Shown here piece by piece: positions 32,932 to 55,840 of a stretch of 64,000 bases of DNA. This stretch comes from an uncultured Gammaproteobacteria bacterium. Its GTDB lineage: Bacteria; Patescibacteriota; Microgenomatia; Woykebacterales; RBG-16-39-9b. The notes beneath the pieces are model-generated. The model was not told the DNA's origin. It ran no database searches and saw only the letters and a list, made by a program, of their open reading frames with translations. A program made the translations under genes and the position numbers. Within the stretch, counting starts at the first letter, position 1. Each line of letters begins with the position of its first letter. The stretch spans positions 9,334 through 73,333 of the forward strand of contig CAYHXX010000001.1 in assembly GCA_964360785.1 (NCBI GenBank), written 5' to 3'.

Positions 32932-32951
32932 TTGGAAAAGGAGCGGGCAAA

Positions 32952-33290: not shown

Positions 33291-33403
33291 GTGAGTAACT
33301 TAACACTTTGAAAAGAAGTGGGCAAATAAGATAAAAGAAACTCCCGTCGAGGTTTGCTCGGACGGGAGTCGGTGGTTCTTACATATGTTGCTGCGTTGAG
33401 TCT

Positions 33404-33751
33404 TCAGGAAACGATCTCCTCGTGGCTCGATTCGGTCGGCTTCGTCTCGCCGATAACCGGTGGTGCGTCCTTGCTGATTGTCACCGGAGTCGTAAGGCCC
33501 TCGTACTCGAAGACCAGTTCGACCTTGTGGTTCTCGGCAAGGCGGATGTCCACAAGACTTGACCATTCGAGGCGGTACAGCACGACGCTGCCGAGGGTGG
33601 TTCCCTTGTACCTCAGGATGTTGCCGTTGGCCTGATGCAGGCTGTAGCGAACGCCTTTCCGTACCCACGTCACGACGCCGTGAATGATTTTCGCCTGAAA
33701 ATGGGCGGCGACTTGATCGGTCCACTTCTCTTCGAGCAGAACTGTTGCCAT
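33404..33751 (-). CDS. GC-rich hypothetical protein, paralog A of 36410..36760
   Basis: KW..QVAAHFQAK / LAENHKVELVFEYEGLTTPVTISKDAPPVIGE aligns with KW..EVAGHLQAE / IAGHKVALVFKRDGHKRMVTISKDSSPVIVGE. Confidence 0.5.
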   Translation of the reverse strand: MATVLLEEKWTDQVAAHFQAKIIHGVVTWVRKGVRYSLHQANGNILRYKGTTLGSVVLYRLEWSSLVDIRLAENHKVELVFEYEGLTTPVTISKDAPPVIGETKPTESSHEEIVS

Positions 33752-33770
33752 GACGCCCTCCTTCGCTGTG

Positions 33771-34223
33771 CTAGTTGCTGAAGAACTCGCCGAGCATCGT
33801 ACCGCCGGGTACGATCTTGGCGAACAAGTCAGTCGTACTCTCGTCCCGGTGCTGGCTGTGGCAGATTGGGTGGATTGCCGGTGGTTGGTTGAACAGCCTA
33901 CCGATGGCTACCTCAGCCCGTTTGATCTCTGCCAGACCAGCGCGATTGGCCGGATTGTTGTTGTCCCTCGATAGGACCGTGACGATGTGCAGAACCCTTC
34001 CAGTCGGAAGGTGGCCGAAGATGACCCCTGCCTGGACTTCCCGCTTGCGCAGTTCGTCCATGAATGCACCCGCGGCCCGTGTGAGAGTGTCGGCCCGGTC
34101 CTCGCCGACCCCGACTTCAACCAGCTTCTGCTGTAGCCAACTGATTCCGTGAAAGACCAAGATGACCTCCTGCTTCCTGCAGATCCCTGCTGTGGGGTGC
34201 TTTCTTTGCAGCGATTTTAGCAA
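33771..34223 (-). CDS. GC-rich hypothetical protein, operonic with paralog A
   Basis: 150 aa; 20-nt gap to the downstream gene; the antisense ORF is spurious. Confidence 0.45.
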   Translation of the reverse strand: MLKSLQRKHPTAGICRKQEVILVFHGISWLQQKLVEVGVGEDRADTLTRAAGAFMDELRKREVQAGVIFGHLPTGRVLHIVTVLSRDNNNPANRAGLAEIKRAEVAIGRLFNQPPAIHPICHSQHRDESTTDLFAKIVPGGTMLGEFFSN

Positions 34224-34623
34224 TATTGTTGGATTTAGGCAAATAGAGCTACATTTTTTTGAAATTGAGAAAAAAAGAATTGCCGCCGATCAACAGGGAG
34301 AGTGACCGGCGGTTCGAAGACACTGATTCGAGATAGCCGTGCGCCCAGTACGTTAGGCGATCTTGCCGTTCTCGAAGAACAGGTGCGCAGTCAGAACGAC
34401 GCCAAATGCGGTGAGGAGGACGAGAGCCTTCTCTACCGTACTGAGTCTTTGCGGTTGAAACCGTTCGGATGACTGATCCCTCATGGAAATTTCTCCTGCT
34501 AACTCCCTGCAGGGATAATTATATTTATTTTTCGTTTGGAAATAAATGGACAATTAAAGCGGATTAAAAAGTGGGTTGTGATCTCTCTCCGGAGAACACT
34601 ACCCGAAAGCTGAGTTTCGCTAG

Positions 34624-35073
34624 CTACATTGGATACTCCTCAGCTTCCTCTTCCCGTCGTTTATCAAGAGCAAAGAGTTCAAATGAACGCCGAACATTCT
34701 TCGCAATCTGTTTCGGATCCTTACTGCTCTCGCATTTGAAGCCATGCCACCTGCGATACTTTTCGCGTGCCTCTGGAGTAATGATTCCGGTGGTCGCCAC
34801 CAAAGTTATCACAAAATGGGGCTCTTTCCTTTCGATGTGACCAATCGCCCACTCGATATCAGTTTGTGTAATCTGTTCATTAATACAGACCCAGACCATC
34901 CCATCTTTGTTTACAACAATGATCTGTGGCCCACGTGCTAAACCAGATTGAATCTGTATATTCAGATCTGTGGTCTGTAGTTCTCTGGCAATACTTCGGA
35001 TACGAGCTGGTAAGCTCATATCAGCTGGGATGCCAGGGAGCATGAGGACAAGAGTGTCGAAGAACCGAGGCAT
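34624..35073 (-). CDS. hypothetical protein
   Basis: 149 aa; acidic C-terminus. Confidence 0.4.
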   Translation of the reverse strand: MPRFFDTLVLMLPGIPADMSLPARIRSIARELQTTDLNIQIQSGLARGPQIIVVNKDGMVWVCINEQITQTDIEWAIGHIERKEPHFVITLVATTGIITPEAREKYRRWHGFKCESSKDPKQIAKNVRRSFELFALDKRREEEAEEYPM

Positions 35074-35192
35074 CAGACTCCTCCTTCTGAAAGTAGCGAT
35101 CTCTGGTTCGCGAGGTGAGATTATATCAAATTGGGAAAAAGAAAGACTCCCTTTGGTTTACGCCGTGGGGAGTCTGAGATCTCTAGTTTGTT

Positions 35193-35561
35193 TCATTTGC
35201 TGATTACTCTAAACCGTTTGGACCTTTCCCGATGTTGCCATCTGAGTCTGTGCCACTCGTATTTTGACCAAAGACACGACAGCAGTGTCACCGTCAGAAT
35301 GAACACTGGTAGAACTATGGTCGGGATGACGAAATTGGCTGTCCATTGAAAATGCGTTGTTGGGAACAACAGTAGAACTGTTCCGACATAAGCTGGTCCA
35401 ATAATGAATAGTGCAATTCCACTGATCAATATGTCGCCCGTCTTCCAGAAAGCAACCGATTGTCTGATCTTTCGAATTCTCCCACTCTGTCCTGTTCGGT
35501 TGCGGCGATTACTCTTGAGCAGACGAAGCGTTGGTTTGGGTTGCTGATTCCCATAACCCAT
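35193..35561 (-). CDS. small membrane protein
   Basis: 122 aa, two TM helices, basic N-terminus. Confidence 0.35.
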   Translation of the reverse strand: MGYGNQQPKPTLRLLKSNRRNRTGQSGRIRKIRQSVAFWKTGDILISGIALFIIGPAYVGTVLLLFPTTHFQWTANFVIPTIVLPVFILTVTLLSCLWSKYEWHRLRWQHRERSKRFRVISK

Positions 35562-35678
35562 GAATCACCCTCCTCTTTTTTGTCTTTGGTTTTTATATGT
35601 TAGCACTGGGGAAAGAAGTGGGCAAATTTATAAATAAGAAAAAGAAAGACCCCCTTGGTTACCCGTAGGAGTCTGTGG

Positions 35679-36254
35679 TCAGTTGATAATCGTGCCTTGA
35701 GCGTTGATTGGCACTTGGACCGATCTTACTTGAGATTTTCTACTTTTTCTTGTTCGCGATCTTCTCCTGTTGTTTTCAAACATTTTTTTCGGAAAGACTC
35801 CAGCAGAGATACTCAGGAATACTCTATCCAGGCTGGGGTATTTCGTTGTCGATCTTTCCATCAGTTTCCAGAAGCCCTTGATATGTTCGTTTAGCATTTT
35901 GCCAAGTATTGTCTTTTGTACATGCAGCGGTAGATTTGACAGGACAATAATGGCAACCGCTACTGCGTGGGCATAAGCTATTTGGTGCGGAACTGAGTTG
36001 TTTCCTGGCATCGCGCTGTAGAACATGTGATAGCAGTGTTCCACATGGTCCTTCAAATCTTCGACAGGTAACGCTAACAGTTTCGGATCGCCCGCTATTT
36101 CCTTTCTGGTTTCTTGAAGGCAGCCAGCAATTTCTGGTGTATCAAGTGTTTCTTGTTTCCAATTGACCCGAGGGAACTTTCGGCGCACCATAGCCAGGAC
36201 GGGTGTTGGGTCAGACAAGAGACTGACGAGAGTGTACAGCTTGGGTGGTGGCAT
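35679..36254 (-). CDS. hypothetical protein with basic C-terminal tail
   Basis: 191 aa; C-terminal RRRSRTRKSRKSQVR. Confidence 0.4.
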   Translation of the reverse strand: MPPPKLYTLVSLLSDPTPVLAMVRRKFPRVNWKQETLDTPEIAGCLQETRKEIAGDPKLLALPVEDLKDHVEHCYHMFYSAMPGNNSVPHQIAYAHAVAVAIIVLSNLPLHVQKTILGKMLNEHIKGFWKLMERSTTKYPSLDRVFLSISAGVFPKKMFENNRRRSRTRKSRKSQVRSVQVPINAQGTIIN

Positions 36255-36409
36255 CCTATTCCTCCGTGAACTCGTCCTTTCGTGATGAGGATTTTATCAC
36301 ATCTTATAATTCATAGTAAATTGGAGAAGGATTTTAGAAATGAAAGAAGGGAAGGTCCGGTGTGGATCTTCCCTTTGGGGTGCAGAGCTGGGTGTTGGTT
36401 TCACGAGCT

Positions 36410-36760
36410 TTAGGAGACAGTACCCTCTCTGCTGGTCGGTGTTGCTGGTGGTTCTCCAACGATGACCGGCGAGCTGTCCTTGCTGATCGTCACCATTCGC
36501 TTGTGGCCATCACGTTTGAAGACCAGGGCAACCTTGTGACCGGCGATCCAGAGGATTTCCGTCAGGCCTTCCCAGTTGAGGTCACTGAGGCTGGATCCGG
36601 ACGTGGTGACCTCGGTTAGGGAGACACTGTCGCCGGTTCGGTCCAGCGCGGTGTGAACTCCCTGGTGATCCCAGCGGATCCTGCCGTTGGAGGTTTCCGC
36701 CTGCAAATGGCCGGCGACCTCCATCCACTTACTTGCGCGTTCTTCAGGCGTCATTTGCAC
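36410..36760 (-). CDS. GC-rich hypothetical protein, paralog B of 33404..33751
   Basis: See paralog A alignment. Confidence 0.5.
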   Translation of the reverse strand: MQMTPEERASKWMEVAGHLQAETSNGRIRWDHQGVHTALDRTGDSVSLTEVTTSGSSLSDLNWEGLTEILWIAGHKVALVFKRDGHKRMVTISKDSSPVIVGEPPATPTSREGTVS

Positions 36761-36890
36761 TTACTCCTCCTGCTAATATCGTTCCGTTAGGGGCTATTTT
36801 AGCATATAGTTAATAAAAATGGGATTTACTTGAGGATCTTGGCAATGAATTTGTGGGTTGAAACAACCATGTAGAGTGTTGTTTTCCTGA

Positions 36891-37433
36891 TTAGTCCCAA
36901 AAGATCGGGTCAGAGATAAACGGGCCAAAAGCAAAAATTATTCCGTGTGAATAAGCTAGATCGCGAGGCAGGTGCTTGTTGCTGATTAGACCCATCACAC
37001 CTTCCTCCTGATAAATATTTGGGTTACCCGAAAGCCCAATCACAACGTCTCTTAGTTCTTTTCCAGCCAAAAGTTGCTTGGAGATTTTGTCTGATACCTG
37101 CCAGTGTGCTGAAGTACCCAGTCCCAGATTACCTTTCCTATCGACTACGGCAATCCAGCCACTTTCGAACCAGCGCTCCCCCACTTTGTGCATGCCACCT
37201 TCCATACCGATTGCATAATCTGCTTTGGTTTTTTTCAGCGCGTTTTGGGCGCGGTTTATTGCTCCTTTCAGGCTTATTTCAGCAGACTTGGGTTGATTAT
37301 CTACACCGGAATCAACTTCAACTCCTGTTACTTTAGTTCCAGGGAAAAGTTTATCAATGGCTAGTTGGGCGGCACGAATCTTGGCCTCATTTGTACTGCC
37401 GACAACGATTTTCATCCTATCTTCTTGATCCAC
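36891..37433 (-). CDS. non-canonical purine NTP pyrophosphatase-like (YjjX / inosine-xanthosine triphosphatase family)
   Basis: MKIVVGSTNEAKIRAAQ..., WFESGWIAVVD; true start probably the internal MKIVV. Confidence 0.65.
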   Translation of the reverse strand: MDQEDRMKIVVGSTNEAKIRAAQLAIDKLFPGTKVTGVEVDSGVDNQPKSAEISLKGAINRAQNALKKTKADYAIGMEGGMHKVGERWFESGWIAVVDRKGNLGLGTSAHWQVSDKISKQLLAGKELRDVVIGLSGNPNIYQEEGVMGLISNKHLPRDLAYSHGIIFAFGPFISDPIFWD

Positions 37434-38187
37434 TGATCAAAAATATTTTTAATTTCAGCTAAATGTTCTGGTGCTTGGAAAGTGTGGGGTGCACCCTTGA
37501 TTACATGAAGTTCTTTTTTGTCACCTGGAATTGTTTCAAAAAGCACCTGTGACTCATAGAGATGTTCGTCTTTTTCGCCAACAATCAAAAGTACTGGCAT
37601 GGTTAATTTTTCTGCTTGCGGAAGCAAGTCATATTTCATCCGATCTTCAATATGAGACCATTTCAATTTCTTGATTAAACCAGGAATGGACCCACTTTTT
37701 TGTTCTCGCCAACCAGTTTTCTCCCATTGTTCAGCTACCCTTTTGTGGCGCGGGGTTTCAACACTTAACTTTCCGGAAACAACTGTTGAAATTGGGGCTA
37801 AGGCTTTTACCAGTTCAGGATGACGTTCGGCGTACAAAGCAGTTGAAATTCCTCCAAGACTGTGACCGGACAGGCAAAAAGGTTCTTGATACCAGCTTTG
37901 GGTTTTCGCCAGCTAATGACATCTTCGAGATCTTCGTAATAATTTGTTGTGGTGGCATCCGCGTAATCTCCCTCGCTTTCACCATAAGTATTGGTAGTAT
38001 CAAATCTGATAACTGTGTAGCCGGCGTCAGAGAAAGCTTTGGCAAAGGTTTCGATGTGAGGTTGCTCTTTGAAACCGCCTAGTCCGTGGGCTACGAAAGC
38101 AAGGCCTTTTTGGTTCTCGGCCTTCTCAAGAATTAAAACAATCTTTTGCTTTTTGCGGTTTTGGATCGTGATTTTTTCCATAATCAA
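37412..38187 (-). pseudogene. alpha/beta-hydrolase gene disrupted by a 1-nt frameshift
   Basis: N-half (ORF 37807..38187: VAHGLGGFKEQPH...EDLEDVISW) and C-half (37412..~37900: AKTQSWYQEPFCLSGHSLGGISTALYAERHPE... with GHSLGG nucleophile elbow) lie in frames offset by -1 at ~37895-37905 (att agc tgg | gcg aaa). Confidence 0.6.
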
Positions 38188-38636
38188 AGGTTGAGTTCCT
38201 GTCTGGAGTTTTCTGGAAAGTTCACTACATCAAAAAGGACAAATTGGGTTGGTTTGATTTTGTAAAACCGATGTGGTTTATCCTTTAAAGCCATAAAGTC
38301 GGCAATTTGTCTTTTTGAAAATATTCTTTTGGTAAAGAGTAGAATTGCTTGGGAAACATCTTTTGGACTTGAAACTATTTCAGCTATTCCCTGCAATTGC
38401 AAACCTCGAGGTGGATCAGCTGGAGTGTGAGGAAGGACAATAGCCGCGGCGACCTTATTATTCTTTTCAACTTCTTTGGAATGTCGGCGTGAAGTTGCGG
38501 AAAACCAGTAAATGTTAAGATCGGAGTCAGCGGCAAACCAAACATTGCAAACCCAAGGTTGATCGTTCACTGAAGTAGCTAGCTGCATAAGCTTGGCCTC
38601 ATTTAAGTAGTCTTTAATTAACTGTTTCAAATTCAT
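38184..38636 (-). CDS. pyridoxamine 5'-phosphate oxidase-like FMN-binding split-barrel protein
   Basis: LMQLATSVNDQPWVCNVWFA...; 150 aa. Confidence 0.7.
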   Translation of the reverse strand: MNLKQLIKDYLNEAKLMQLATSVNDQPWVCNVWFAADSDLNIYWFSATSRRHSKEVEKNNKVAAAIVLPHTPADPPRGLQLQGIAEIVSSPKDVSQAILLFTKRIFSKRQIADFMALKDKPHRFYKIKPTQFVLFDVVNFPENSRQELNL

Positions 38637-38860
38637 ATTACGTAGACGTTAGTAAAAGGGTTTTCATGGAAATATTTTACCACCTTTGGCAGCAAAGGTG
38701 GCACCAAACTGCCGCAAAACTGCGCGTGCTAGAAAGATTTAAGTCACTCAAGCAAAATTGCAAACTCATCCGCCGGTTGGCGGACTCAAACAAGCAATTT
38801 GTGCTAATTCGCTTGGTCAAATCTTTCCTATACGCATGCTCGTAAAGCGGGGCTGAAATG

Positions 38861-39036
38861 CCTTAGCAAAGTTGGTGTTTTTGAACTAGCTAAAAAGCGA
38901 AGAGAAAGCTGGAACTGACCCGCCAGCTGGCGGGGAATTCCAGAAGTTTCCGAGCTTTTTCGCGTAGCTTCAAAAGCCAACACAGCGGAGGCTCTGCTTT
39001 TCTTGTTACTTCTTTTCGCAGAAGCAAAAGAAGTGG
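38861..39036. repeat. copy 2 (inverted) of the hairpin-rich ~175-bp repeat; contains an extra perfect palindrome CCCGCCAGCTGGCGGG
   Basis: Reverse complement matches 26762..26935 block-for-block; the 27-nt core is identical. Confidence 0.7.
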
Positions 39037-39037
39037 A

Positions 39038-39394
39038 TTAAAACAGTTTTCCTCCAATTTTTGCATCGTGGTCAGCCTTGCCTGCCGGCAGGCAGGGTCG
39101 TACTAATACTACTCTCCCCTGCTCATCCGGTACGCCCAGTGTCAGGCACTCAGATACAAATGGTCCGATTTGTTTGGGTGGGAAATTCACTACTCCAAGC
39201 ACAAGTGTGCCTGTGAGCTCATCCTTATTATATAGTTCAACTATCTGGGCACTACTCTTTTTAATCCCGATTTCACTTCCGAAATAAATTTCTAGTTTGT
39301 AAGCTGGTTTACGAGCCTCTGGAAAATCCTCGACCTTAACTATCTTTCCAACCCGAATTTCGACCTTAGAGAAATCTTCGTAGTTAATTTTCAT
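39038..39394 (-). CDS. tRNA-binding domain protein (CsaA/Trbp111/EMAP-like)
   Basis: MKINYEDFSKVEIRVGKIVKVEDFPEARKPAYKLEI... Confidence 0.8.
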   Translation of the reverse strand: MKINYEDFSKVEIRVGKIVKVEDFPEARKPAYKLEIYFGSEIGIKKSSAQIVELYNKDELTGTLVLGVVNFPPKQIGPFVSECLTLGVPDEQGRVVLVRPCLPAGKADHDAKIGGKLF

Positions 39395-39695
39395 TGGTTT
39401 CTTTCTCTATCCAATCTAAATATGGCTGATTAACTTTTTCTGGTTTGACGCTGACAATTTCCGGAACTTCATAACCAGAATTTTCTTTGAGGAAAGTTTC
39501 GATTTTATCAAAGTTCTCTTCTTTGGTTTTGAGAATCATCAGAGCCTCAGTTCCCATCTTGATCTCCCCTTCCCACCAATAAGAAGACTCAACTTCAGTC
39601 AGGTTGTAACAAGCGATAAGTTTCAGCTCAAGGAGTTTGCGACCGAGTTTATAAGCGATTACTTTGCTGGTGATAGTTGTAAAGATAAGTATCAT
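39384..39695 (-). CDS. cutA: divalent-cation tolerance protein CutA
   Basis: ILIFTT..KLIACYNL..SSYWWEGEI..ALMILKT; start taken at the internal Met. Confidence 0.7.
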   Translation of the reverse strand: MILIFTTITSKVIAYKLGRKLLELKLIACYNLTEVESSYWWEGEIKMGTEALMILKTKEENFDKIETFLKENSGYEVPEIVSVKPEKVNQPYLDWIEKETNEN

Positions 39696-39924
39696 TGAGG
39701 AAGATTTTAGCACTTGTTTTGTCAAGAGAAAAGATATTGCTGAAAAGAAAACTCCCGGCTTTTGCGGGAAGTGGTGAGTTAGTAGGAAAAATCAGCAGAC
39801 TTGTTTTAAGAATACCACAACAGTCAAAAAGGAAACAAGGAATTGATTTTGCTCTTGGGCACTTACATTATTAAAGTACGCCCTTTAACAACCGAATTTA
39901 GCTGATTACCCGGAGGGAGGGGTC

Positions 39925-41169
39925 ATGTCAGCAACTGGGTTAGTCCTGTCGACCGACCAATCGGACAGCAAAATAGTTGATATATATACAAAAGGTGAGC
40001 ACAAGTCGCACCTTGTGTCGGCATGGTTGCCGATCCGTCGAATCAATGCCTTGAGGCAGATGCGCACGACATTTGACCCGGAAGAGTTGCGGAGTCTGGC
40101 AGATAGCATCACTGTCCAGCATCTGCTCCACCCACTGGTGGTGGCGCAATTTACCTCTGAACAGGCACTTGAGCACCTGCGGGTTATAAACAGAGCTTGG
40201 GGAACACACTACACAATCAACGACCTCAAGGCTACCGAGACTGAGGAGGGTTTGTTCTACTTCATTCTGGCAGCTGGGGAAAGAAGGTTGCGGGCAGTCC
40301 TATGGCTTTGGGAAAAAGGTTGCGAAGCTCATCGTGAAGAATATTCTCCGCAACCGGTTCCAGAAGGTTTCTGTTACATCAGTCACTTTGGAGACGACAG
40401 GATTCCGGTAAGAATCCGCACGGACGCAACTCCAGATATCGTACTAACAGTACAACTGGTAGAAAACACAGCGGTCCTGCCGCTACCACACGAAACTGCA
40501 ATGGCCTTTTCGGAGTACCACCCGATTTGGCAAGTATTCAACCCGAAAACAACTCTGAAAGATTTTGCCAAACAGGTGAATCGTTCATCAAGTACAGTCA
40601 GCGATTACCTGCGTTATGCCAAGCTTCCGGAATCGATCCACGAAGAAGTAAAGCAAGGGCTCATCCCATTCGGGATTGCGGTAGAGATCTCTCGTTTGCA
40701 CGAAGACGGTATGGGTGAGGAAGAGCTGGGATATTGGGTGTTGAAGGCCAAGGCCGGCAACTTCCCGATCCCGGACTTTCGTGAGATGGTCTCAAACACA
40801 CTCAAGGAAAGACACTCCGGACAAACAAGCATGTGGGATATGATGACGGCAAACGCTGTCGCCGCTGCCAACATGCAAGATATCCGACTGATACTGGAAC
40901 GGCAGCAAAGCCGTGGGTGGCACGTTGCGATTGGGGTAAGAAAGCGAGTGATAGCGCTGGTGAGAGATGGAAAACTGGGATTTAGAGACTCGCCCTTCTC
41001 CTCGAGAAGCGTAGTCAGACAGATGCGAATCGATCTCGAACTAGCTCGAGAAGAGAATGAACTTCTCAAACACTTGCTCGGTGCAGAAGGTTACCAGCAA
41101 GCTACTGAGATACTGGCAGAGCGGGATAGCCTGACTTTGCAATTATTTGAGAGAGCGGAAAGAGAATGA
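39925..41169 (+). CDS. ParB/Srx-like nuclease-domain protein
   Basis: GGAGGGAGG RBS; LPIRRINALRQ..ELRSLADSITVQHLLHPLVV...FILAAGERRLRAV (ParB N-domain box II-like); GC-rich. Confidence 0.65.
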   Translation: MSATGLVLSTDQSDSKIVDIYTKGEHKSHLVSAWLPIRRINALRQMRTTFDPEELRSLADSITVQHLLHPLVVAQFTSEQALEHLRVINRAWGTHYTINDLKATETEEGLFYFILAAGERRLRAVLWLWEKGCEAHREEYSPQPVPEGFCYISHFGDDRIPVRIRTDATPDIVLTVQLVENTAVLPLPHETAMAFSEYHPIWQVFNPKTTLKDFAKQVNRSSSTVSDYLRYAKLPESIHEEVKQGLIPFGIAVEISRLHEDGMGEEELGYWVLKAKAGNFPIPDFREMVSNTLKERHSGQTSMWDMMTANAVAAANMQDIRLILERQQSRGWHVAIGVRKRVIALVRDGKLGFRDSPFSSRSVVRQMRIDLELAREENELLKHLLGAEGYQQATEILAERDSLTLQLFERAERE

Positions 41170-41516
41170 GATCAAATGGAGAAAATCTAGAAGCCGTAGA
41201 CACCCTGTCGCCGGCTTCTTTTTATATCTCTCATTTCTCGTAGCCGATTGGATGCTTGAAGTCTCGAATACAACCTTGATCATCCCGATCATGTGGTAGA
41301 GACAGGTGTTCTCCGGAGCTTTCCACAACATGGCTCTTGATACACGGGCTGGTGAAAATCGCAATTGTCCCCAAAAATATCATGAATAGTATTATACCGG
41401 TTACAACTGCTGCTGTGCTTACAAGGTACAGTAGGCGCAGAGTACCCTCATCCATCCAGCTGCTTTTTGGAACAGTGCCGAAAACTTCGATGTGATCTTG
41501 ATGTTCGAAGTTGCCG

Positions 41517-46469: not shown

Positions 46470-46700
46470 TGGTTCTAAGTGTCTCAGAGTTGCTCTAGTA
46501 AATCAAGTTTTTAACTGCCTCCAAGAAATTGCAGTATGGTGTACAAAGCACCAAATAGGATAAGTATAAAGACGATAAAAGCGAGAAGACCTATGAAAAC
46601 AGAATTGTTTTGTTGGCCGTTGCTAGGATGCATGTTACATATATCATATAACAAATGAGCTGGAGAATTAAGTTTCAATTATGTCATAATAACGTTGGCT

Positions 46701-48572
46701 ATGACTGAGAAACTTTTCAGTAGTTTTTTTCCAAAATCGCCTAATTTTCTTTTGCGTTACCCGGTATTTATTTTTTCCTCTGTACTGTTTGGTTTTGGCC
46801 TGTTTGAGCTGTATCTTGGCCAACAAGAAACTGCAAACTTGGTTTTTCAGCTAGTACTGATTTTTGGAGGTATCCCCCTTGCCTATGGAACAATTAAGGA
46901 ACTTCTGAAGAAAAATTATGGTGCCGACATAATAGCTGTCTTGGCGATTATCACCTCCCTATTGTTAAAGGAGTATCTTGCCGGAGCAATCATAATAATT
47001 ATGCTTTCTGGCGGTCGGGCTCTTGAGGATTTTGCACTTCAGAGTGCTTCGGATGCTTTAAAAAAGTTGGCCGAAGCTGCTCCTAGTATCGCCCACCTGG
47101 TGAAGGGGAAAGAAATTAGTGATATCAAAGTTGAGTCGGTTCGTGTTGCTGATACCTTGTTGGTGAAGCCAGGAGAATTAATTCCAGTTGACGCTGTTAT
47201 CATCAAAGGTGAGACATCAATCAACGAGTCTGCTCTGACTGGGGAACCCGTTCCAACCCACAAAACTTACAACAGCGCGGTATTGTCTGGAAGTGTAAAT
47301 CTGGACAACCCAATCCAAATCAGGGCCATTCGCAAAGCTTCAGAAAGTAAGTACGAACAAATTGTGAAATTAGTTCGCGATGCCCAGGCCACCAAAGCCC
47401 CGCTTCACCGGTTGGCCGATCGTTACGGAGCCATTTTTACCCCAGTGACTTTGTTCGTTGCCGCTGCTACCTATATATTTACACAAGATTCTATCAATGT
47501 ATTGGCGGTTTTGGTAGTGGCTACTCCCTGTCCCCTAATCTTAGCAACTCCAATCGCCATCATGGGTGGGATCAACCGTTCTGCGAAAAAAGGAATTATT
47601 GTTCGTAACGGTGGGGCTATAGAAAGAGTTGGGCAGGCAGAAGCAGTGGTGTTTGATAAGACTGGGACCCTAACTTTCGGTTTACCAAAAATAGTTGAGA
47701 TCAAGCAATTTGATATGACTTCGACAAAAGAAATCCTGCGCTACGCTGGTAGTGTCGAGCGTTTATCGGCTCATATACTCGCCAAGTCAACTGTAAATAT
47801 TGCTCACGAGCAGAGCATTGATTTGGTGTTCCCAGAAAATTTTAAAGAAACATTCGGGAAAGGTGTTGCAGGAGAAGTTGATGGAAAGCAGATAGCAGTT
47901 GGTAGCCAAGGTTTCATTAAGGACCATGGAGGTGAAATTTTTCCAGAGTTAGAGGGTTTTAAAAAAGAACAAAACGAACTGGGAAGGATAGTCAGTTTTG
48001 TTGCAATTGATAAAAAAGTTAATTCCGCTTTAGTATTTGGGGATGAGATCCGACCAGACATCAAAAAGACAATTTCTGAACTTCGAAACTTGGGTATAAA
48101 GCAAATTGCTATGCTTACCGGGGATTCGAAGAAAGTTGCCGACCAAGTCGCTGCCCAAACTGGTATTGATCTGGTCAAAGCCCAGACACTACCTGATGAG
48201 AAGGTAGAGTTTATCAATAAACTAAAAGAAACTTACTCCCATGTTGTTATGGTTGGTGATGGTTTCAATGACGCTCCGGCTTTGGTTTCAGCAACGGTTG
48301 GGATCGCTCTGGGGGCTTCGGGGAGCAGTATTTCCAGCGAATCAGCAGACATTGTCCTTGTCGAAAACAATATTGAGAAAGTAAACCAAGTTATTGGTAT
48401 CGGTAGGAAAGTGCTGTCAATTGCTCGTGGTGGGATACTTTTTGGAATGGGGGCTTCTTTTGTTGCCATGCTTTTTGCAGCTTTTGGATTTATTTCTCCG
48501 GTGAAAGGCGCAATCTTGCAAGAAGCTATTGACATCGTTGTGATCTTGAATGCTTTGCGCGCCAGCCGCTAA
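46701..48572 (+). CDS. P1B-type heavy-metal-translocating P-type ATPase (TPCP motif, no N-terminal MBD)
   Basis: DKTGTLT, GDGFNDAPAL, TM6 ATPCPLILATP; the track ORF starts at TTG 46695, ATG 46701 preferred. Confidence 0.85.
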   Translation: MTEKLFSSFFPKSPNFLLRYPVFIFSSVLFGFGLFELYLGQQETANLVFQLVLIFGGIPLAYGTIKELLKKNYGADIIAVLAIITSLLLKEYLAGAIIIIMLSGGRALEDFALQSASDALKKLAEAAPSIAHLVKGKEISDIKVESVRVADTLLVKPGELIPVDAVIIKGETSINESALTGEPVPTHKTYNSAVLSGSVNLDNPIQIRAIRKASESKYEQIVKLVRDAQATKAPLHRLADRYGAIFTPVTLFVAAATYIFTQDSINVLAVLVVATPCPLILATPIAIMGGINRSAKKGIIVRNGGAIERVGQAEAVVFDKTGTLTFGLPKIVEIKQFDMTSTKEILRYAGSVERLSAHILAKSTVNIAHEQSIDLVFPENFKETFGKGVAGEVDGKQIAVGSQGFIKDHGGEIFPELEGFKKEQNELGRIVSFVAIDKKVNSALVFGDEIRPDIKKTISELRNLGIKQIAMLTGDSKKVADQVAAQTGIDLVKAQTLPDEKVEFINKLKETYSHVVMVGDGFNDAPALVSATVGIALGASGSSISSESADIVLVENNIEKVNQVIGIGRKVLSIARGGILFGMGASFVAMLFAAFGFISPVKGAILQEAIDIVVILNALRASR

Positions 48573-49708: not shown

Positions 49709-49781
49709 CTGGGTTGAAATTCTACTCTAAGAGGAGTTTTTAGGCAAGAAAAGTTCTGGGGGGAAAAACACCTTAGATGAG

Positions 49782-51056
49782 CTATTCGTTCTTGATTGCT
49801 CGAATAGGATCGATGTTTGAGGCTCGGAATGCTGGCCAAAATGCTGAGAAGAGAGAAACAAAGGTTGTAACCGCAATAACGATCAGCGGAATGGTAGTAT
49901 TGTATGGAAGTATATTTACAGTTGGCAGGTCCTTCAAAAAAGTCTGATGGGTGTAAAAGTTAATAATGCTAAACCATCCAAGGGAAAGAATTGAAGCCAA
50001 GATACCAGATCCAAACCCAATCATGATTGCCTCCGTTGAAAACAATATTCTGATAGTACCTTTTGTTGCGCCAACTGCCTTCATAATCCCTATTTCCCGT
50101 GTTCTATCTTTGACCGCTACTGACATTGTCGTAAAGATAAATAGAGCTGAGATCACAAAACCGATAATTGCCAAGACTCGGAAGAACCACTCCACTGCCC
50201 CGCTAATTCCTTGGCTGATTTCCTCGGCAGTTGTAGACTCAAAACCCAGCTTCTCAATCGCTTTGTCGACATCACTAATTTGGTTTTTGTCCTTAACTTT
50301 CACCTTGATACCACTTCCAAATTGAGTTTTGTAGAGTTCTGGATTGCCATAATCGTCACGCGCCATTTGAACAGCGTCTTCGTAACCAACAACAAAGTCT
50401 GGATTTTCCGACACAGCATTGTCCGATACCCCAAGTATCTGGAAACTATAGTTTTGCTGACCATCGATAATTACCATCTTCCCAACCAAATCATCTGGTT
50501 TATCAGCACCAAAAACCTTCTGGTATTTGGCTGAGATTATTCCTACACCTTGGTCGTTTTTCTGCAAGTCTCGGCCAGCTACAATCTTTAATTTGTCCTT
50601 AGTTTCAATCGAGTTGTACGCTGTTATAGCAACGTATTTCTTACCACCACTGACAAGTTGTATGGCTTTAGTTATGGTTGCAAGATCAATTTCGTAATCG
50701 ACCTCTGCTACTCCAGAAACTTTTTTGATTTTCTCAATATCATCTTTCTTAAATAAAACTATCTCCATTCCATAAAGATTTAGTGTGTCTTGCTTGACCT
50801 CAACAGGTTCTTTGCTAGAGGTTGGTCCAGTGAAACTAATATTTATGTCAGGCGATTTTGGATTTACTCTCACTATGTCATCGGCTGGCAAAAATGATAG
50901 TTGTTCTTTAAGGAAACCACTAAACCCTGACTGTAAAGCCAATAGTGCGCTTAGAAGAATAGCTGCAATACACAGTGCAATCACTGTGAAAATATTGCGG
51001 AATTTACGCCGGAAAAGATTACGAAACGAAAGTTTGAAATAATACTTTAGTTTCAC
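49782..51056 (-). CDS. ABC transporter permease, FtsX/MacB-like
   Basis: TM1, large periplasmic loop, three C-terminal TM helices; stop overlaps the ATPase gene. Confidence 0.8.
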   Translation of the reverse strand: MKLKYYFKLSFRNLFRRKFRNIFTVIALCIAAILLSALLALQSGFSGFLKEQLSFLPADDIVRVNPKSPDINISFTGPTSSKEPVEVKQDTLNLYGMEIVLFKKDDIEKIKKVSGVAEVDYEIDLATITKAIQLVSGGKKYVAITAYNSIETKDKLKIVAGRDLQKNDQGVGIISAKYQKVFGADKPDDLVGKMVIIDGQQNYSFQILGVSDNAVSENPDFVVGYEDAVQMARDDYGNPELYKTQFGSGIKVKVKDKNQISDVDKAIEKLGFESTTAEEISQGISGAVEWFFRVLAIIGFVISALFIFTTMSVAVKDRTREIGIMKAVGATKGTIRILFSTEAIMIGFGSGILASILSLGWFSIINFYTHQTFLKDLPTVNILPYNTTIPLIVIAVTTFVSLFSAFWPAFRASNIDPIRAIKNE

Positions 51057-51715
51057 TGTATTCTCCCATCTTTAATTCGAATAATTTTGGAAGCAAGTGA
51101 AGCTATTTCTTCGTTGTGAGTTATCATCACCAAGGTGATACCTTTTTCCTTGTTGAGTTTCATCAAAAGATCGATAACTTGTTTTCCGGTCTTTGTGTCT
51201 AGGTTTCCTGTTGGCTCGTCGGCGAGAATAATTTGTGGGTCTGTGATCAAGGCACGGGCAATGGCGACTCGTTGTTGTTCTCCCCCGGAAAGCTCTTTTG
51301 GTAGATGCTTAGCTCGGTCACCAAGATCAACCTCACGCAGCACTGTTTCAGATTTTTGGTTGATATTCTGATCGGAGTCTTTGGCTAGGATCAGTGGTAA
51401 GGCCGCATTTTCTTTGGCGTTGAAGATAGGATGCAAATTGTAGGATTGGAATACGAAACCAACTTTTTTGTTGCGGAATTGAGACAGTTTCTTATCAGCT
51501 AGTTTTGCTAGGTTTTGATCATCAACTAAGACCTCGCCTGAAGTTGGCCGATCGAGACCACCCATTAGATGCATGAGAGTGGATTTACCACTGCCCGATG
51601 GTCCCAGGATAGCAACAAACTCACCCTTTCTTATCTCAACATTTACCTGGTCAAGGGCTTTGACCAAGTTTTTACCGATCTTGTAGATCTTGGAGACGTT
51701 TTTAAACTGGATCAT
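51053..51715 (-). CDS. ABC transporter ATP-binding protein (MacB/LolD-like)
   Basis: [35 protein letters not shown]. Confidence 0.9.
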
Positions 51716-51721
51716 GAAATC

Positions 51722-51907
51722 TTAGCAAAATTCGCAGACTTCGGCTTTTTTCTTCATATCAGGGGTGTTGACCTTGCAGCAATTTTCGCAGCAAAATTTC
51801 TTGCCGTCCATGGTGTAGTGTTCTCCTGCTTTGATTTCTTTGCCACAGTTTTCACAAACATGTTTTTCAGAATCTGTTTCTGGACCCATTCCAAGTATTT
51901 CACTCAT
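51722..51907 (-). CDS. Cys-rich small metal-binding protein (TRASH/YHS-like CxxC-x17-CCxxCC)
   Basis: 8 Cys in 61 aa: CENCGK...FCCENCCK...CEFC; first gene of the ABC operon (6-nt gap). Confidence 0.55.
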   Translation of the reverse strand: MSEILGMGPETDSEKHVCENCGKEIKAGEHYTMDGKKFCCENCCKVNTPDMKKKAEVCEFC

Positions 51908-51938
51908 ATATTTTAACTTTAAAGTAAAAGGAAAAAGC

Positions 51939-52010
51939 TGTCAAACGCTAAGGCGTTTCGCAAGTAGGAACTAGTCAAACGCTAAGGCGTTTCGCAAGTA
52001 GGAAATAGTC
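51939..52010. repeat. 2.2 tandem copies of a 34-nt unit GTCAAACGCTAAGGCGTTTCGCAAGTAGGAA(C/A)TA, each with an AAACGC-taag-GCGTTT hairpin
   Basis: Read directly; 32 nt upstream of the TRASH-ABC operon start codon. Confidence 0.7.
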
Positions 52011-52021
52011 AAGAAAAAGAG

Positions 52022-52063
52022 AAAAGGCAGCGGGCGCTAGTTGGTAGGAAACCAATGCCCGCT
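52022..52063 (-). terminator. intrinsic terminator (minus strand)
   Basis: AGCGGGC...TTGGT-aggaa-ACCAA...GCCCGCT, then on the minus strand GCCTTTTCTCTTTTTC. Confidence 0.5.
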
Positions 52064-52202
52064 ACCTTGATGAGGACAACTTATCTAATCGGGACTGCCG
52101 CCTGGCTACAAGAGTTATTTGTCGGTTAACCAGAGGTTACCGCAGGACATCAGTGCCGTTGGTCCTGGGTGGGCTTACAGACCCCTGCGCTGCTGTGTCG
52201 CG

Positions 52203-52376
52203 CTAGGTCGCCGAGATCGCCACCGCTGCCGCGCCGGCCACGTTGTGGTCGAGCGCTGCCTTCTTCCGCCCGGTCTTCAGGCCGATCTTCGCTCGTGTCG
52301 GCGTCTTGTCGAACGCTGCAGCCGCCTGCTCGGGGCTCGCGCGCGTTGCGCCGGTGAACATGGAGATGCTTCGCAT
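52203..52376 (-). CDS. candidate 57-aa Ala-rich ORF in a ~65% GC islet
   Basis: GGAGG 10 nt upstream of ATG; MRSISMFTGATRASPEQAAAAFDKTPTRAKIGLKTGRKKAALDH...; could instead be a gene remnant or non-coding. Confidence 0.2.
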   Translation of the reverse strand: MRSISMFTGATRASPEQAAAAFDKTPTRAKIGLKTGRKKAALDHNVAGAAAVAISAT

Positions 52377-52580
52377 AGGCTACTTGCCTCCGCTGTTGGT
52401 TCCTTCCGTTGTCGTTCCCAGCACTGCTCCTACCTCAGTACTAGTATGACTGCAGCTTGCCTCAAGCTTTGCACCTCTCGGTTGCCTGCTTGTTCACTTT
52501 TCGTGAAAGGCTCACTACATGAGAAGAATTTTACTACTAGCCAGAAAGCCTGTCAATATAATTGCACTTTAAAAAAAAGA

Positions 52581-52609
52581 AACAGCAGGTTGTTAAGACT
52601 GCTGCTGTT
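52581..52609. terminator. bidirectional intrinsic terminator
   Basis: AACAGCAG-13nt-CTGCTGTT flanked by A8 (T8 on the minus strand) and TTTTCTTGATTT. Confidence 0.55.
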
Positions 52610-52865
52610 TTCTTGATTTGATTTTTTCGTATAAGAAAAACGCTGGGATAGATATTGGCCAAGTTAGACTAAAGCCAACTCCAATTGGCACGTACTCTTG
52701 GAATTCCATCTTCAAGTGGCGTTTCTCTTTTCTCTTTCTCTCCTGTATTAGCCACCATCCTAGATCGATTATGAGCCAGGTGAAGGTAGCTAGCGTACCT
52801 AGTATATAGATTCGTCTCAAGACGATCTCGTTCGTAGAAGACCACTTCTTTCTTTCAGTCTCCAC
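52593..52865 (-). CDS. small membrane protein
   Basis: Two hydrophobic helices; overlaps the upstream gene, so the true start may be internal. Confidence 0.3.
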   Translation of the reverse strand: METERKKWSSTNEIVLRRIYILGTLATFTWLIIDLGWWLIQERKRKEKRHLKMEFQEYVPIGVGFSLTWPISIPAFFLYEKIKSRKQQQS

Positions 52866-53083
52866 TCAGCAGCATGTAACTCTTTGGCGGTTTTTGAATC
52901 TTCACCTAATATTGCGGTGATGAGTTCGATCTGCTCTTCTAAGTCTGAACAGTCGTTAAGTGAACCAACGTTGTCGATTCTGTCCTGAAATTCAATTGCC
53001 CCTTCCACTTGGGCTCTCAGCATTCTGGCTGTTTGATATATACCAGCGAGCTGTGCTACTGCGGTGTTGAGTGCTTCAGCCAC
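52817..53083 (-). CDS. CsoR/RcnR/FrmR-family (DUF156) metal-sensing transcriptional repressor-like protein
   Basis: AGGGAGG RBS + GTG start; all-helical 88 aa; ARMLRAQVEGAIEFQDRI..DCSDLEEQI resembles the RLKRIEGQVRG..YCIDILTQI core with Cys and His at fingerprint positions. Confidence 0.5.
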   Translation of the reverse strand: MAEALNTAVAQLAGIYQTARMLRAQVEGAIEFQDRIDNVGSLNDCSDLEEQIELITAILGEDSKTAKELHAAEWRLKERSGLLRTRSS

Positions 53084-53158: not shown

Positions 53159-55840
53159 ATGCCTGAACAGGATTTTTACAAACTTTCCCAAGAAGAACTT
53201 TTTGTCCAACTCGAAACCAGCAAAAAAGGACTCTCCGCAGAGGAGGTCCAAAGGCGGTTGGAAAAGTATGGGCAAAACAAACTAACTGCCAAAAAGAAAA
53301 TTTCTCCGTTTGAAATCTTTCTTTCTCAATTTAAAAACAACCTCATACTGATATTGATTGCTGCAGCCTTCTTGGTGTTTTTTGTCTATTTCTTTGGCAA
53401 AGAACAGGATTCTTCTGATCTGATCGAGGGCAGTTTGATCTTGGCAATTGTTTTGATGATTACAATCCTTGGTTTTGTTCAAGAATACAAAGCCGAGAAA
53501 GCCGTTGAAGCTCTCAAAAAGTTGCTTGCCTTCAATGCCAAGGTGGTTCGTGATGGTAGCGAGCACCAAGTTGATGTCACAAGTTTGGTCCCTGGAGATG
53601 TTGTGGTACTTGAAGAGGGTGAGAAAGTTCCGGCAGACATCCGGCTGTTTCAAGTTTCCAACATCACTACTCTCGAAGCTTCATTGACTGGCGAATCAAC
53701 CCCCGTGAGCAAAAATACTGACCCAATAGATAAGGCTGTTCAGATTGGTGACCAAAAGAATATGGTTTTTTCTAGTACTATCATTGCTTCTGGACGGGGT
53801 TTGGGAGTAGTGGTCAAAACTGGAGATCTGACAGAAATTGGAAAAATTGCCAACTCTGTTGCTAGCGTTGAGGACGAGGAAACCCCAATTCAAAAAAGAC
53901 TGGATGATATTGGCAAAGCCCTTGGTTTTATTGTCCTGGGTGTTTGTGCGGTTGTTTTTGTCTTCATTGTTTTCTTCGCCGGAGAATTTCAAAAGCTAGA
54001 CCTGTTTACTAGAGTCATAACATCGTTTATTGCCGCTATCTCACTAGCCGTGGCTGCGATTCCGGAAGGTTTACCGGCTGTGGTAACAATCGCACTTGCT
54101 TTGGGAACACAGCGAATGTTGAGACGGAAGATTTTGGTTAGGAAGCTGAATTCGGTTGAAACCCTCGGGTCAACGGATGTGGTTTGCTCAGACAAGACTG
54201 GAACTTTGACGAAAAACGAGATGACTGTTCAGGAACTTTATTTTAATAACCAGATCTACTCTGTTACCGGAACTGGCTATGAGCGACAAGGTGACTTTTT
54301 GCTCGAAGGAAAGAAAGTGGATCCAAAGGAGCTCGAACTGCTGCTCGCGATTGGACAAATCTGTAACGATGCAAACTTTGAGGGTGAGAAACTCTTGGGA
54401 GACCCGACCGAAGGCGCCCTGCTCGTCAGTGCAGCCAAAGCAGGTGTCGAGAAAAAAGTAGAAAGAGTCAAAGAGATTCCTTTTAGTTCTTCACGTAAGA
54501 TGATGTCAGTGGCCGATGAGGATGCTGGCAAAATCCTTGTTTATGCCAAAGGGGCTCCAGAAGTTCTCCTGGAACACTGTGAAAAGCTATTGGTTGCTGG
54601 TAAAGGGATCGAACTTTCAAAATCTGATAAAGAACAAATCCTCAGAACAGTTGACCAGATGTCCCACAAAGCCCTGCGGACACTTGCCTTTGCTTACAAA
54701 GAAACTGACAAAATTGAAGAGGATGAGCAGATGGAAGCGGGTCTGGTTTTTGTTGGGTTGCAAGGAATGATCGATCCTCCAAGAGTCGAGATCGAGCCTT
54801 TGATCAATGCCTGTAACAGCTCAGGAATTCGCACGATCATGATCACTGGCGACCATCAAGCCACAGCCGAGGCAGTTGCCCATCAGGTTGGTATTGATGG
54901 TAAAAGTATTTCCGGCACCGAGCTTGATAAACTCAGCCCAGAGGAGCTCGACAAAGTGGTCCAAGAGGTTGATATCTATGCTCGAGTCTCTCCTGACTTT
55001 AAGATGAAGATTGTCGATATCCTCCAGAAACACGGGCACATTGTGGCAATGACGGGTGACGGGGTCAACGACGCTCCCGCAGTCAAAAGGGCTGATATTG
55101 GGATTGCCATGGGAATCACCGGCACTGATGTGGCCAAGGAGGCTTCTGACATGGTCTTGCTTGATGATAACTTCTCTACCATAGTAGCGGCTATCGAAGA
55201 AGGACGCGGGATTTTTACTAATATCCGAAAATTTGTAGATTATTTGCTTTCTTGTAATATTGCTGAAGTCTTGGTTGTCTTCTTTGCTCTGATGCTCTTT
55301 CAACATCTGCCCCTGACAGCAATAATGCTGCTTTGGATAAATGTGATCACCGATGGTCTACCAGCAATAGCACTGGGACTAGATCCAGCGGAAAAAGGGA
55401 TCATGCGCTACTCCCCCAAGAAATTTCAGGAGCAAATTATCAACAAACGTCTTTGGGTGGAAATGGTTGTTTTTGGAGTACTGCTGACAATCGGAGTGCT
55501 TGGAATTTACTGGCACAATATTCCCGAGGGTTTGGCTGAAGCTCGAGCAGCGGCTTTTATGGCAATTGTAATTTTCGAATTAGTCAGGTTGCTAATCATC
55601 CGAGCAGATCACAAAACTTCAATCTTTTCAAACGGTTGGTTGATTGTGGCCGTGGTTGTATCGGTTCTGCTTCAGGTAGCGCTTGTTTATATCCCCTTCT
55701 TGGCAAACCTCTTTGAGATCAAACACATTGATCTTTTTGACTGGGTTTATATTGTGATTGGGAGTGGTATTATCTGGGGTAGTTTTGAGTTGATACGGCG
55801 TGTGACCAATCAGCTTTCAATATTAGACGAGAAAGCTTAA
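53159..55840 (+). CDS. P2-type cation-transporting P-type ATPase (Ca2+/Mg2+ pump-like)
   Basis: PEGLPAVVTIALA (TM4), DKTGTLTKNEM, TGDHQATA, GDGVNDAPA; the track ORF starts at TTG 53132, ATG 53159 preferred. Confidence 0.9.
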   Translation: MPEQDFYKLSQEELFVQLETSKKGLSAEEVQRRLEKYGQNKLTAKKKISPFEIFLSQFKNNLILILIAAAFLVFFVYFFGKEQDSSDLIEGSLILAIVLMITILGFVQEYKAEKAVEALKKLLAFNAKVVRDGSEHQVDVTSLVPGDVVVLEEGEKVPADIRLFQVSNITTLEASLTGESTPVSKNTDPIDKAVQIGDQKNMVFSSTIIASGRGLGVVVKTGDLTEIGKIANSVASVEDEETPIQKRLDDIGKALGFIVLGVCAVVFVFIVFFAGEFQKLDLFTRVITSFIAAISLAVAAIPEGLPAVVTIALALGTQRMLRRKILVRKLNSVETLGSTDVVCSDKTGTLTKNEMTVQELYFNNQIYSVTGTGYERQGDFLLEGKKVDPKELELLLAIGQICNDANFEGEKLLGDPTEGALLVSAAKAGVEKKVERVKEIPFSSSRKMMSVADEDAGKILVYAKGAPEVLLEHCEKLLVAGKGIELSKSDKEQILRTVDQMSHKALRTLAFAYKETDKIEEDEQMEAGLVFVGLQGMIDPPRVEIEPLINACNSSGIRTIMITGDHQATAEAVAHQVGIDGKSISGTELDKLSPEELDKVVQEVDIYARVSPDFKMKIVDILQKHGHIVAMTGDGVNDAPAVKRADIGIAMGITGTDVAKEASDMVLLDDNFSTIVAAIEEGRGIFTNIRKFVDYLLSCNIAEVLVVFFALMLFQHLPLTAIMLLWINVITDGLPAIALGLDPAEKGIMRYSPKKFQEQIINKRLWVEMVVFGVLLTIGVLGIYWHNIPEGLAEARAAAFMAIVIFELVRLLIIRADHKTSIFSNGWLIVAVVVSVLLQVALVYIPFLANLFEIKHIDLFDWVYIVIGSGIIWGSFELIRRVTNQLSILDEKA

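Follow-up and report, generated by a model that had tools for sequence, protein, structure and literature searches.

The stretch of DNA analyzed here carries, directly in front of a gene for a 61-aa Cys-rich protein, a tandem 34-nt repeat with a palindrome in each unit, which raises the question of whether this array is a regulatory element and, if so, whether it would act as DNA or as RNA. The initial annotation had taken it for a textbook arrangement for an operator array or for tandem RNA hairpins in a 5' leader. Our analysis of the window, i.e. the whole stretch of 64,000 nucleotides, favors with modest confidence a different origin, namely a young, lineage-specific, TTGAC-bounded 68-bp insertion and tandem duplication at the upstream edge of a conserved -35 hexamer. 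The features on which the argument is built are the following.

49782..51056, minus strand: gene for an FtsX-type permease with a MacB periplasmic core domain (Pfam FtsX 6.9e-17, MacB_PCD 1.5e-11)
51053..51715, minus strand: gene for an ABC ATPase, LolD/FtsE/MacB-like (Pfam ABC_tran 1.9e-36, NCBIfam)
51722..51907, minus strand: gene for the 61-aa Cys-rich, zinc-ribbon-like mini-protein with six invariant Cys (codon differences, family alignment)
51916..51921, minus strand: predicted -10 hexamer TAAAGT, following the -35 hexamer after a 17-nt spacer, with the ATG 8 nt further on (promoter scan)
51939..51944, minus strand: predicted -35 hexamer TTGACA, its first five bases being the last five of the proximal unit (promoter scan)
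51940..52012: tandem array, composed of the proximal unit 51940-51973 and the distal unit 51974-52007 (Tandem Repeats Finder, shuffled pattern search, repeat finding)
51943..51958: proximal 16-bp palindrome, overlapping the predicted -35 hexamer by 2 bp, centre at about -42 to -44 from the predicted transcription start
51977..51992: distal palindrome of the same sequence, 34 bp upstream of the proximal one, centre at about -76 to -78 from the predicted start
52014..52068, minus strand: predicted intrinsic terminator of the upstream unit, with an 18-bp interrupted stem (52068..52024) and the T-tract TTTTCTCTTTTT (52025..52014)
52069..52556, minus strand: putative transcription unit of a GC-rich islet, with a predicted promoter TTGACA-17-TAAAAT (52556..52528) and an SD-led 57-aa ORF (52376..52203)
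53083..52817, minus strand: gene for an 88-aa protein, followed by a short membrane ORF and then a terminator (52619..52571)

The repeat was recovered as it had first been described, with two 34-nt copies, one mismatch and a partial third copy. Tandem Repeats Finder delimited it on the window to 51940-52012, with a period of 34, 2.1 copies and 97% matches, the partial copy comprising 5 nt (GTCAA, 52008-52012). Read on the minus strand, the unit is TA(T/G)TTCCTACTTGCGAAACGCCTTAGCGTTTGAC. The two units differ at one of their 34 positions (C or A at unit position 32 of the plus strand), which falls outside the palindrome, and none of the shuffles of the window gave a match to the unit pattern. 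Both units hold the perfect 6-4-6 palindrome AAACGC-TAAG-GCGTTT (AAACGC-CTTA-GCGTTT on the minus strand), and folding as DNA supported the annotated hairpin in each of them (-5.5 to -5.6 kcal/mol, z -3.0 to -3.75). The distance of 32 nt from the end of the array to the ATG of the mini-protein gene (51907, minus strand) likewise agreed with the earlier description. L001, an independent assembly from the same population (99.97% identical), agrees with the window in both units, including the mismatch that sets them apart, and the tandem repeat is thereby confirmed as real. Copy-number variation within this population was not observed, a single state being found in two assemblies; a higher copy number could have been collapsed by short-read assembly.

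The 61-aa ORF downstream of the array is a real gene as judged by its codon-position differences from L002, a relative from a different sample whose mini-protein is 87% identical. These differences are distributed 4/4/20 over the three codon positions and result in 19 synonymous and 8 non-synonymous codons. In the window the gene has neither a Shine-Dalgarno sequence nor an alternative in-frame start. Every repeat unit ends in TTGAC, another TTGAC precedes the array, and the last TTGAC forms the -35 box TTGACA together with the next base. The same hexamer was found at the equivalent place in L002, L004, L006, and L008, with TTTGCA in L012 and TTGCTA in L005, and in all these homologous mini-protein genes a 17-18-nt spacer leads to a -10 box located 6-8 nt before the ATG. 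A -10 box 5-9 nt before the start codon, the lack of a Shine-Dalgarno sequence, and the retention of this arrangement among orthologues are the marks of a leaderless promoter. This type of start seems to be common in the window, where 17 of 62 genes have a -10-like hexamer whose end lies 6-10 nt ahead of the start codon, compared with about 1 at each offset elsewhere. As the conserved -35 and -10 elements, the latter 8 nt before the ATG, place the start at or beside the ATG and downstream of the array, we predict a leaderless or 2-nt-leader mRNA starting at 51907-51909. The repeats, at about -33 to -105, would then be promoter-upstream DNA and not leader RNA. Since the array would not be transcribed from the mini-protein promoter, any effect it has should be exerted on the level of DNA.

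The age of the array is indicated by the two closest relatives, L002 and L012, both of which keep the promoter and the mini-gene and lack the 68 nt of the array. L012 (GCA_030841465.1), which was reached through its FtsX protein (67% identical), keeps the whole mini-protein/ABC/FtsX operon; its mini-protein ORF, 84% identical, was missed by the gene caller. In L002 the GC islet and its terminator are followed by ...TTCTTTTTTTA-TTGACA-17-TAGAGT-8-ATG with zero repeat units. The promoter of L012, composed of TTTGCA, the spacer ..CTTTTCCTTTTACTC, TAAAGT, 8 nt, and the ATG, contains zero units as well. In both relatives the -35 directly abuts a terminator T-tract, and both retain the spacer ..TTTTCCTTTTA.., the -10 hexamer TA(A/G)AGT, and a distance of 8 nt from there to the ATG. 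The palindrome was matched in no other fetched locus except L001 and L003, the latter a third assembly from the same population. Two outgroups with the promoter but without the 68 nt argue for a derived insertion in the lineage of the window, and the single mismatch in 34 positions argues for a recent duplication. In principle, a deletion between TTGAC repeats could also have produced the zero-copy state of the relatives.

Rearrangement is not confined to the array. No two of the three lineages (window, L002, and L012) agree in what precedes the -35. Between the mini-gene and the DUF2130 gene, which lies downstream of the permease gene in the window, L002 has two small ORFs where the window has ABC-FtsX, and homology between the two resumes, with 98% identity, at the DUF2130 promoter. 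The differing sequence upstream of the -35 and the swapped segment between mini-gene and DUF2130 point to a mosaic of swappable cassettes with breakpoints at the -35 box, and this is of interest for the locus as a whole.

From these comparisons we infer a TTGAC-mediated origin of the array. The 34-bp unit would derive from a segment of 29 bp that contained the palindrome and was bounded by the pentamer TTGAC; TTGAC copies would then have served as the sites of slippage or of an unequal exchange by which the unit was doubled. Such an event does not destroy the promoter, since the TTGAC at the end of each unit restores the -35 hexamer TTGACA. The A/T-rich tail of the terminator, which abuts the -35 in the relatives, would have been pushed 68 bp away by the array, and 56%-GC repeat DNA in its place would probably result in a modest change in basal promoter strength. 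At the same time two identical 16-bp palindromes would come to lie at about -43 and -77, a placement that would bring a dimeric DNA-binding protein into contact with the -35 region. Most likely the array is a near-neutral structural variant that at most modulates the strength of the promoter, rather than a conserved regulatory module. Taken by itself, it would be a strain-specific promoter-upstream duplication of minor importance. One point against this reading is the palindrome, since a perfect 6-4-6 palindrome is expected by chance in a 29-nt insert with a probability of only about 0.003 according to our estimate. As for the source of the insert, only chance 8-11-mers came up when the unit was compared with the window and all loci by short-query blastn, and the 10-mer ACTTGCGAAA in the relatives' mini-ORF was rejected as a candidate (E=1.5, flanks non-matching).

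The position abutting the -35 is the binding place of repressors and class II activators. The palindromes may alternatively be a newly acquired pair of operators through which a dimeric factor represses or class II-activates the mini-protein/ABC/FtsX operon, an explanation that we regard as rather doubtful. It is consistent with a dyad symmetry that is perfect and identical in both units, with the 2-bp overlap of the proximal palindrome and the predicted -35 hexamer, and with the location of the sole inter-unit mismatch outside the palindrome. Several observations argue in the opposite direction. The sites are missing in L002 and also in L012, which has the same operon and promoter. A search of the 64-kb window with the 34-nt unit at up to 3 mismatches returned only the two hits of the array, and the palindrome at up to 2 mismatches gave only 2 hits as well, with 3.4 expected by chance. 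Neither of the two P-type ATPase genes of the window, upstream of which further copies had been envisaged, has a copy of the unit or of the palindrome. The spacing of 34 bp from centre to centre corresponds to 3.2 helical turns and is thus non-integral. Moreover, the promoter already has a consensus -35 and hence does not look activator-dependent.

A regulator gene adjacent to the array was not found either. The 88-aa protein encoded at 52817..53083 had been annotated as CsoR-like, an assignment that did not hold: searches of Pfam and NCBIfam gave no match to CsoR (Trns_repr_metal), to DNA-binding families, or to any other family, and the protein has a single Cys, which is not conserved, its orthologue in L012 having none. 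With 68 nt missing from both relatives, a single pair of sites in the window, and no evident cognate regulator, the designation as a textbook operator array appears too strong, and an operator role of the array is possible but unsupported. Further palindrome sites and a cognate regulator may be located elsewhere in the genome, outside the 64 kb searched, the source contig having a length of about 497 kb.

NrdR was considered as a specific candidate. The idea was prompted by the two 16-bp palindromes together with the ATP-cone genes found near the mini-protein gene in L004, L005, and L009. NrdR boxes are spaced by 31-32 bp. The candidate was rejected, as the palindrome does not resemble an NrdR box, the spacing is 34 bp, and no NrdR or ATP-cone gene is located near the array.

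Combining this alternative with the preferred origin, one can imagine the birth of an operator, in which microhomology-mediated insertion and duplication equipped a mobile mini-protein cassette, which carries its own promoter, with two identical dyad sites at its -35 and thereby put the type VII ABC operon under a putative regulator. We consider such a scenario improbable. It would place the event in one groundwater population, probably of Patescibacteria. The contig names (Hain_H52_01um_R1/R3) agree with an origin from well H52 of the Hainich Critical Zone Exploratory, namely from material collected on 0.1-um filters, and in fractions of this kind Patescibacteria accounted for approximately 68% of the reads (PMC8672522). 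According to the same scenario, translational coupling would allow the cassette to drive an exporter of type VII ABC in two lineages. Should a regulator turn out to bind the palindromes, the locus would offer a rare and datable example of the emergence of an operator.

A still smaller probability is assigned to a mobile origin, in which a small palindromic element of the REP, MITE or PATE kind landed at a TTGAC target and the units are its copies or its footprint. A short unit with one hairpin between 5-bp direct repeats TTGAC, in a locus built as a mosaic of swapped cassettes, would suit such an element. However, elements of this kind are dispersed in many copies, and no further copy was found in the 64-kb window, the 14 related loci, or public collections. 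For the latter, a 22-mer of the unit gave 0 exact hits in 596 Gb of genomes, JGI metagenomes, and IMG/VR, collections that evidently do not include the source genome. BLAST searches of the region, the islet, and the mini-protein against phages and plasmids returned nothing.

It is very unlikely that the repeats act as RNA, either in a 5' leader or by read-through from the GC islet, to control mRNA stability, termination, or translation. A 6-bp hairpin is possible in each unit, and folding of the 176-nt region with the terminator is more stable than that of shuffled sequences (z -4.6). Against this, the conserved -35/-10 elements set the predicted start downstream of the array, so that the hairpins previously assigned to a 5' leader would lie upstream of a leaderless transcript; the unit hairpins are not followed by a U-tract; and the promoter and gene of the mini-protein are present in L002 and L012 without the hairpins. 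Rfam scans at gathering thresholds and at E<=10 produced only noise for the array; covering the whole window as well as 51850-52700 and 23100-24950, the scans turned up one tRNA and nothing else.

Read-through from upstream is opposed by a strong terminator immediately before the array. It consists of the 18-bp interrupted stem and UUUUCUCUUUUU, and three of the stem pairs have changed in a compensatory manner among the three lineages (window, L002, and L012), which indicates that this hairpin with its T-tract is a genuine terminator. A genuine terminator before the array and a predicted start after it would leave the array in a non-transcribed spacer between two units. The terminator had correctly been seen as closing a GC-rich islet: hairpin, T-tract, covariation, and a GC content of the islet of 63-71%, compared to 43% for the window, are all in agreement. 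This islet, which adjoins the repeat and is not part of the array, has long 5' and 3' untranslated stretches and homologous units in L002 and L012. Folding of the whole islet as RNA gave an MFE z of only -0.93, and covariation outside the terminator was weak. RNase P, tmRNA, SRP, and 6S RNA were rejected as identities of the islet, and the Rfam scan gave no match. A search for relatives of the locus with the alignment of the islet peptide did not yield any.

The least probable explanation, an assembly artefact without a counterpart in the cells, can virtually be dismissed, for although short-read metagenome assemblies can mis-handle tandem repeats and L003 stops inside the first unit, the independently assembled L001 has the same two units and mismatch, and a break such as that of L003 is expected at a true repeat.

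The gene downstream of the array turned out to represent a small, previously unannotated family of proteins of 49-61 aa with six invariant Cys, often missed by gene callers, and in the definition of this family lies much of the value of the follow-up. In the window and six further loci its members have their own predicted leaderless promoter, and the family is encoded beside differing membrane transporters. The 8-Cys ORF with the arrangement CxxC-x17-CCxxCC was found on the minus strand as annotated, its full pattern being C18xxC21-x17-C39C40xxC43C44 ... C58xxC61. In the family alignment C18, C21, G22, C40, C43, C58, E59, and C61 are invariant, and C39 and C44 nearly so, which suggests two Cys4 sites per mini-protein. 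A phmmer search of 1.84 billion cluster representatives gave 13 proteins at E<=1e-3, 6 of them free-standing with 49-60 aa, and a word-based search added a close relative (P0001; 61 aa, 87% identical). The single match of a degenerate DNA pattern of the mini-protein in genome contigs (L007) was located antisense inside a 715-aa ORF and was discarded as a chance hit.

The label TRASH/YHS-like suits the Cys spacing, but as a family assignment it was not supported. The published TRASH motif is C-x2-C-x(19-22)-C-x3-C. The spacing C18-x2-C21-x17/18-C39/C40-x3-C43/C44 of the mini-protein comes close to it but is shorter than this range, whereas the TRASH, YHS, and zf-FCS HMMs did not match any of 8 family members at E<=10. 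No other Pfam or NCBIfam model scored above threshold. An AF2 model (mean pLDDT 66) predicts two beta-hairpins and a helix. Sequence and fold searches of the PDB retrieved only generic zinc fingers; the best Foldseek matches were of the treble-clef type with E>0.28, and a TRASH domain (2das) ranked 15th.

The ATPase and permease genes that follow are, by domain content, ordinary type VII ABC components, with best NCBIfam similarity to LolD, FtsE, and MacB below the equivalog cut-offs. PADLOC reported only generic ABC/FtsX similarity and zero defence systems. The tight spacing in the operon was confirmed: the ATPase gene starts 6 nt past the mini-protein stop, and the start of the permease gene overlaps the ATPase stop by 4 nt. 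As the ATPase gene has neither a Shine-Dalgarno sequence nor a promoter of its own at this distance, it probably relies for its expression on the mini-gene being transcribed and translated. The annotated translational coupling is therefore plausible, and the 6-nt gap is kept in L012.

The pairing of the mini-protein with a MacB-type exporter had been called unusual. It occurs in the window and recurs once, in L012. Seven other mini-protein loci do not show it, and the closest FtsX homologue (L011, 72% identical) is not paired with a mini-protein, its ATPase gene having its own predicted leaderless promoter. The recurrent neighbours elsewhere are a divergent Ca-type P2A ATPase (L004 and L005) and an MgtE-domain gene (L004, L005, and L008); in addition, an ATP-cone gene was found in L009 and a SIMPL-family gene in L010. 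In the window a P2A ATPase gene (53162..55840), itself predicted to be leaderless, is located 1.2 kb away, with the 88-aa gene and the GC islet inserted between. The neighbourhoods of the mini-protein are rich in cation transporters.

Among known systems, VNTR-type promoter-proximal duplications come closest to the array under the preferred reading. They likewise consist of a short head-to-tail unit, bounded by microhomology and located immediately upstream of the -35, with a copy number that varies among close relatives (here 0 versus 2) and with displacement of the upstream sequence. The array differs from them in that it was found in one state in two assemblies and carries a perfect palindrome, which simple slippage repeats do not need. 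With dyad-symmetric operators that overlap the -35, such as repressor sites of the TetR/MarR type or class II activator sites near -41.5, the array shares a perfect inverted repeat, here of 16 bp, that edges the predicted -35, and it has a second identical site upstream. In contrast to such operators, the array is not conserved in orthologous promoters, is represented by a single pair in 64 kb, and is not helically phased. REP/MITE-like repeats share with it the short hairpin unit, the position in an intergenic spacer beside a terminator, and the short flanking direct repeat, whereas the array is confined to a single locus, without dispersed copies or an organisation in inverted pairs (BIME-like).

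The mini-protein resembles treble-clef modules of the TRASH/YHS/LIM type in its CxxC ... CxxC/Cx3C spacing around a predicted beta-hairpin/helix core, with weak profile or fold similarity to LIM, the ClpX zinc-binding domain, PHD, and one TRASH domain. It is set apart from these modules by an invariant terminal CxxC (CEFC), doubled Cys (CCxxCC), and its occurrence as a free-standing protein of 49-61 aa. Finally, the ATPase and the FtsX/MacB permease of the window are like type VII (MacB/LolCDE/FtsEX-like) ABC transporters in domain content; what distinguishes the pair in the window and L012 is that it is fed by a putatively leaderless mini-gene located 6 nt upstream.

Upstream of the tandem array lies a self-contained GC-rich islet of about 500 nt. 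It is where GC content in the window peaks, reaching 71% against a mean of 43%, and it is kept across three lineages, represented by the window, its close relative L002 and the locus L012 of GCA_030841465.1:

Window 52014-52556 (minus strand); L002 61-612; L012 1630-2155: GC-rich islet unit
L012 1070-3057 versus window 52024-53083: syntenic cluster common to both loci

The unit has its own near-consensus promoter and a terminator backed by covariation. Between them, flanked by long untranslated stretches, lies a GGAGG-preceded ORF for a basic, Ala/Arg/Gly-rich peptide of 56-61 aa with the motif MR..GA[ST]RASP...TGR...AA..I. The coding signal is weak, with 18/13/22 substitutions by codon position between window and L002; frame, start context and motifs are maintained at 40% identity. 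No Rfam family, phage or plasmid was matched by the islet, and no homologue of the peptide was found among 5.8 billion protein clusters. In the cluster shared by the window and L012 the islet is accompanied by a helical protein of 88/94 aa and a two-helix membrane protein of 81-90 aa with the motif TWP[IV]SIPA. L012 differs from the window by two additional genes 5' of the Cys-rich mini-protein: one encodes a 113-aa HTH protein resembling DnaA domain IV, and the other is a GC-rich ORF of 127 aa.

A -10-like hexamer, TANN[AT]T, ending 6-10 nt 5' of the start codon in the absence of a Shine-Dalgarno sequence was found for 17 out of 62 window genes, about a quarter. Leaderless mRNAs thus seem to be frequent in this organism.

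Window 4946, 9309, 10486, 11803, 21056, 45500, 53162: example starts of the leaderless type

In contrast to these 'native' leaderless genes, those with a strong GGAGG Shine-Dalgarno sequence are grouped at about 28600-41200, where GC content is higher (0.46-0.52 per kb, islets up to 0.635), and at 52203-53083, the latter being the pair of the GC islet and the 88-aa gene called 'CsoR-like' in the initial annotation. This clustering in higher-GC DNA suggests that the GGAGG-led groups are horizontally acquired or integrated DNA. Elsewhere in the window, a stretch of about 1.8 kb (23138-24923) without any ORF of at least 120 aa contains only three ORFs of 66-82 aa and a 59%-GC patch (23311-23528); it had no Rfam match at E<=1.

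Downstream of the mini-protein gene the window and L002 carry different cassettes, and the window also has a second P-type ATPase:

Window 49709-51721 versus L002 838-1480: segment swapped between the mini-protein and DUF2130 genes
Window 46695-48572: second P-type ATPase, 625 aa

In the window the swapped segment consists of the ABC-FtsX genes (2.0 kb); in L002 their place is taken by a pair of short ORFs, of 76 and 57 aa. Homology restarts abruptly at the DUF2130 promoter with about 98% identity, whereas the mini-protein genes are only 85% identical. The second P-type ATPase, 3 kb from the mini-protein, has a CPx-like TPCP motif; an N-terminal metal-binding domain was not found by Pfam, nor was the array palindrome AAACGC-N4-GCGTTT found upstream of its gene.

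In L012 the mini-protein ORF (3151-3336) exists and was left uncalled as a gene in the NCBI MAG. Hence, the family is under-represented in protein databases and probably larger than searches indicate. In three further loci encoding family members, a free-standing ATP-cone protein recurs close to the mini-protein, in L009 directly upstream of it:

L004 479-748; L005 203-472; L009 55-327: ATP-cone protein, 89-90 aa

No sequence similarity was seen between the mini-protein and the NrdR ribbon. In domain make-up, an ATP-cone together with a zinc ribbon, this neighbourhood is reminiscent of NrdR.
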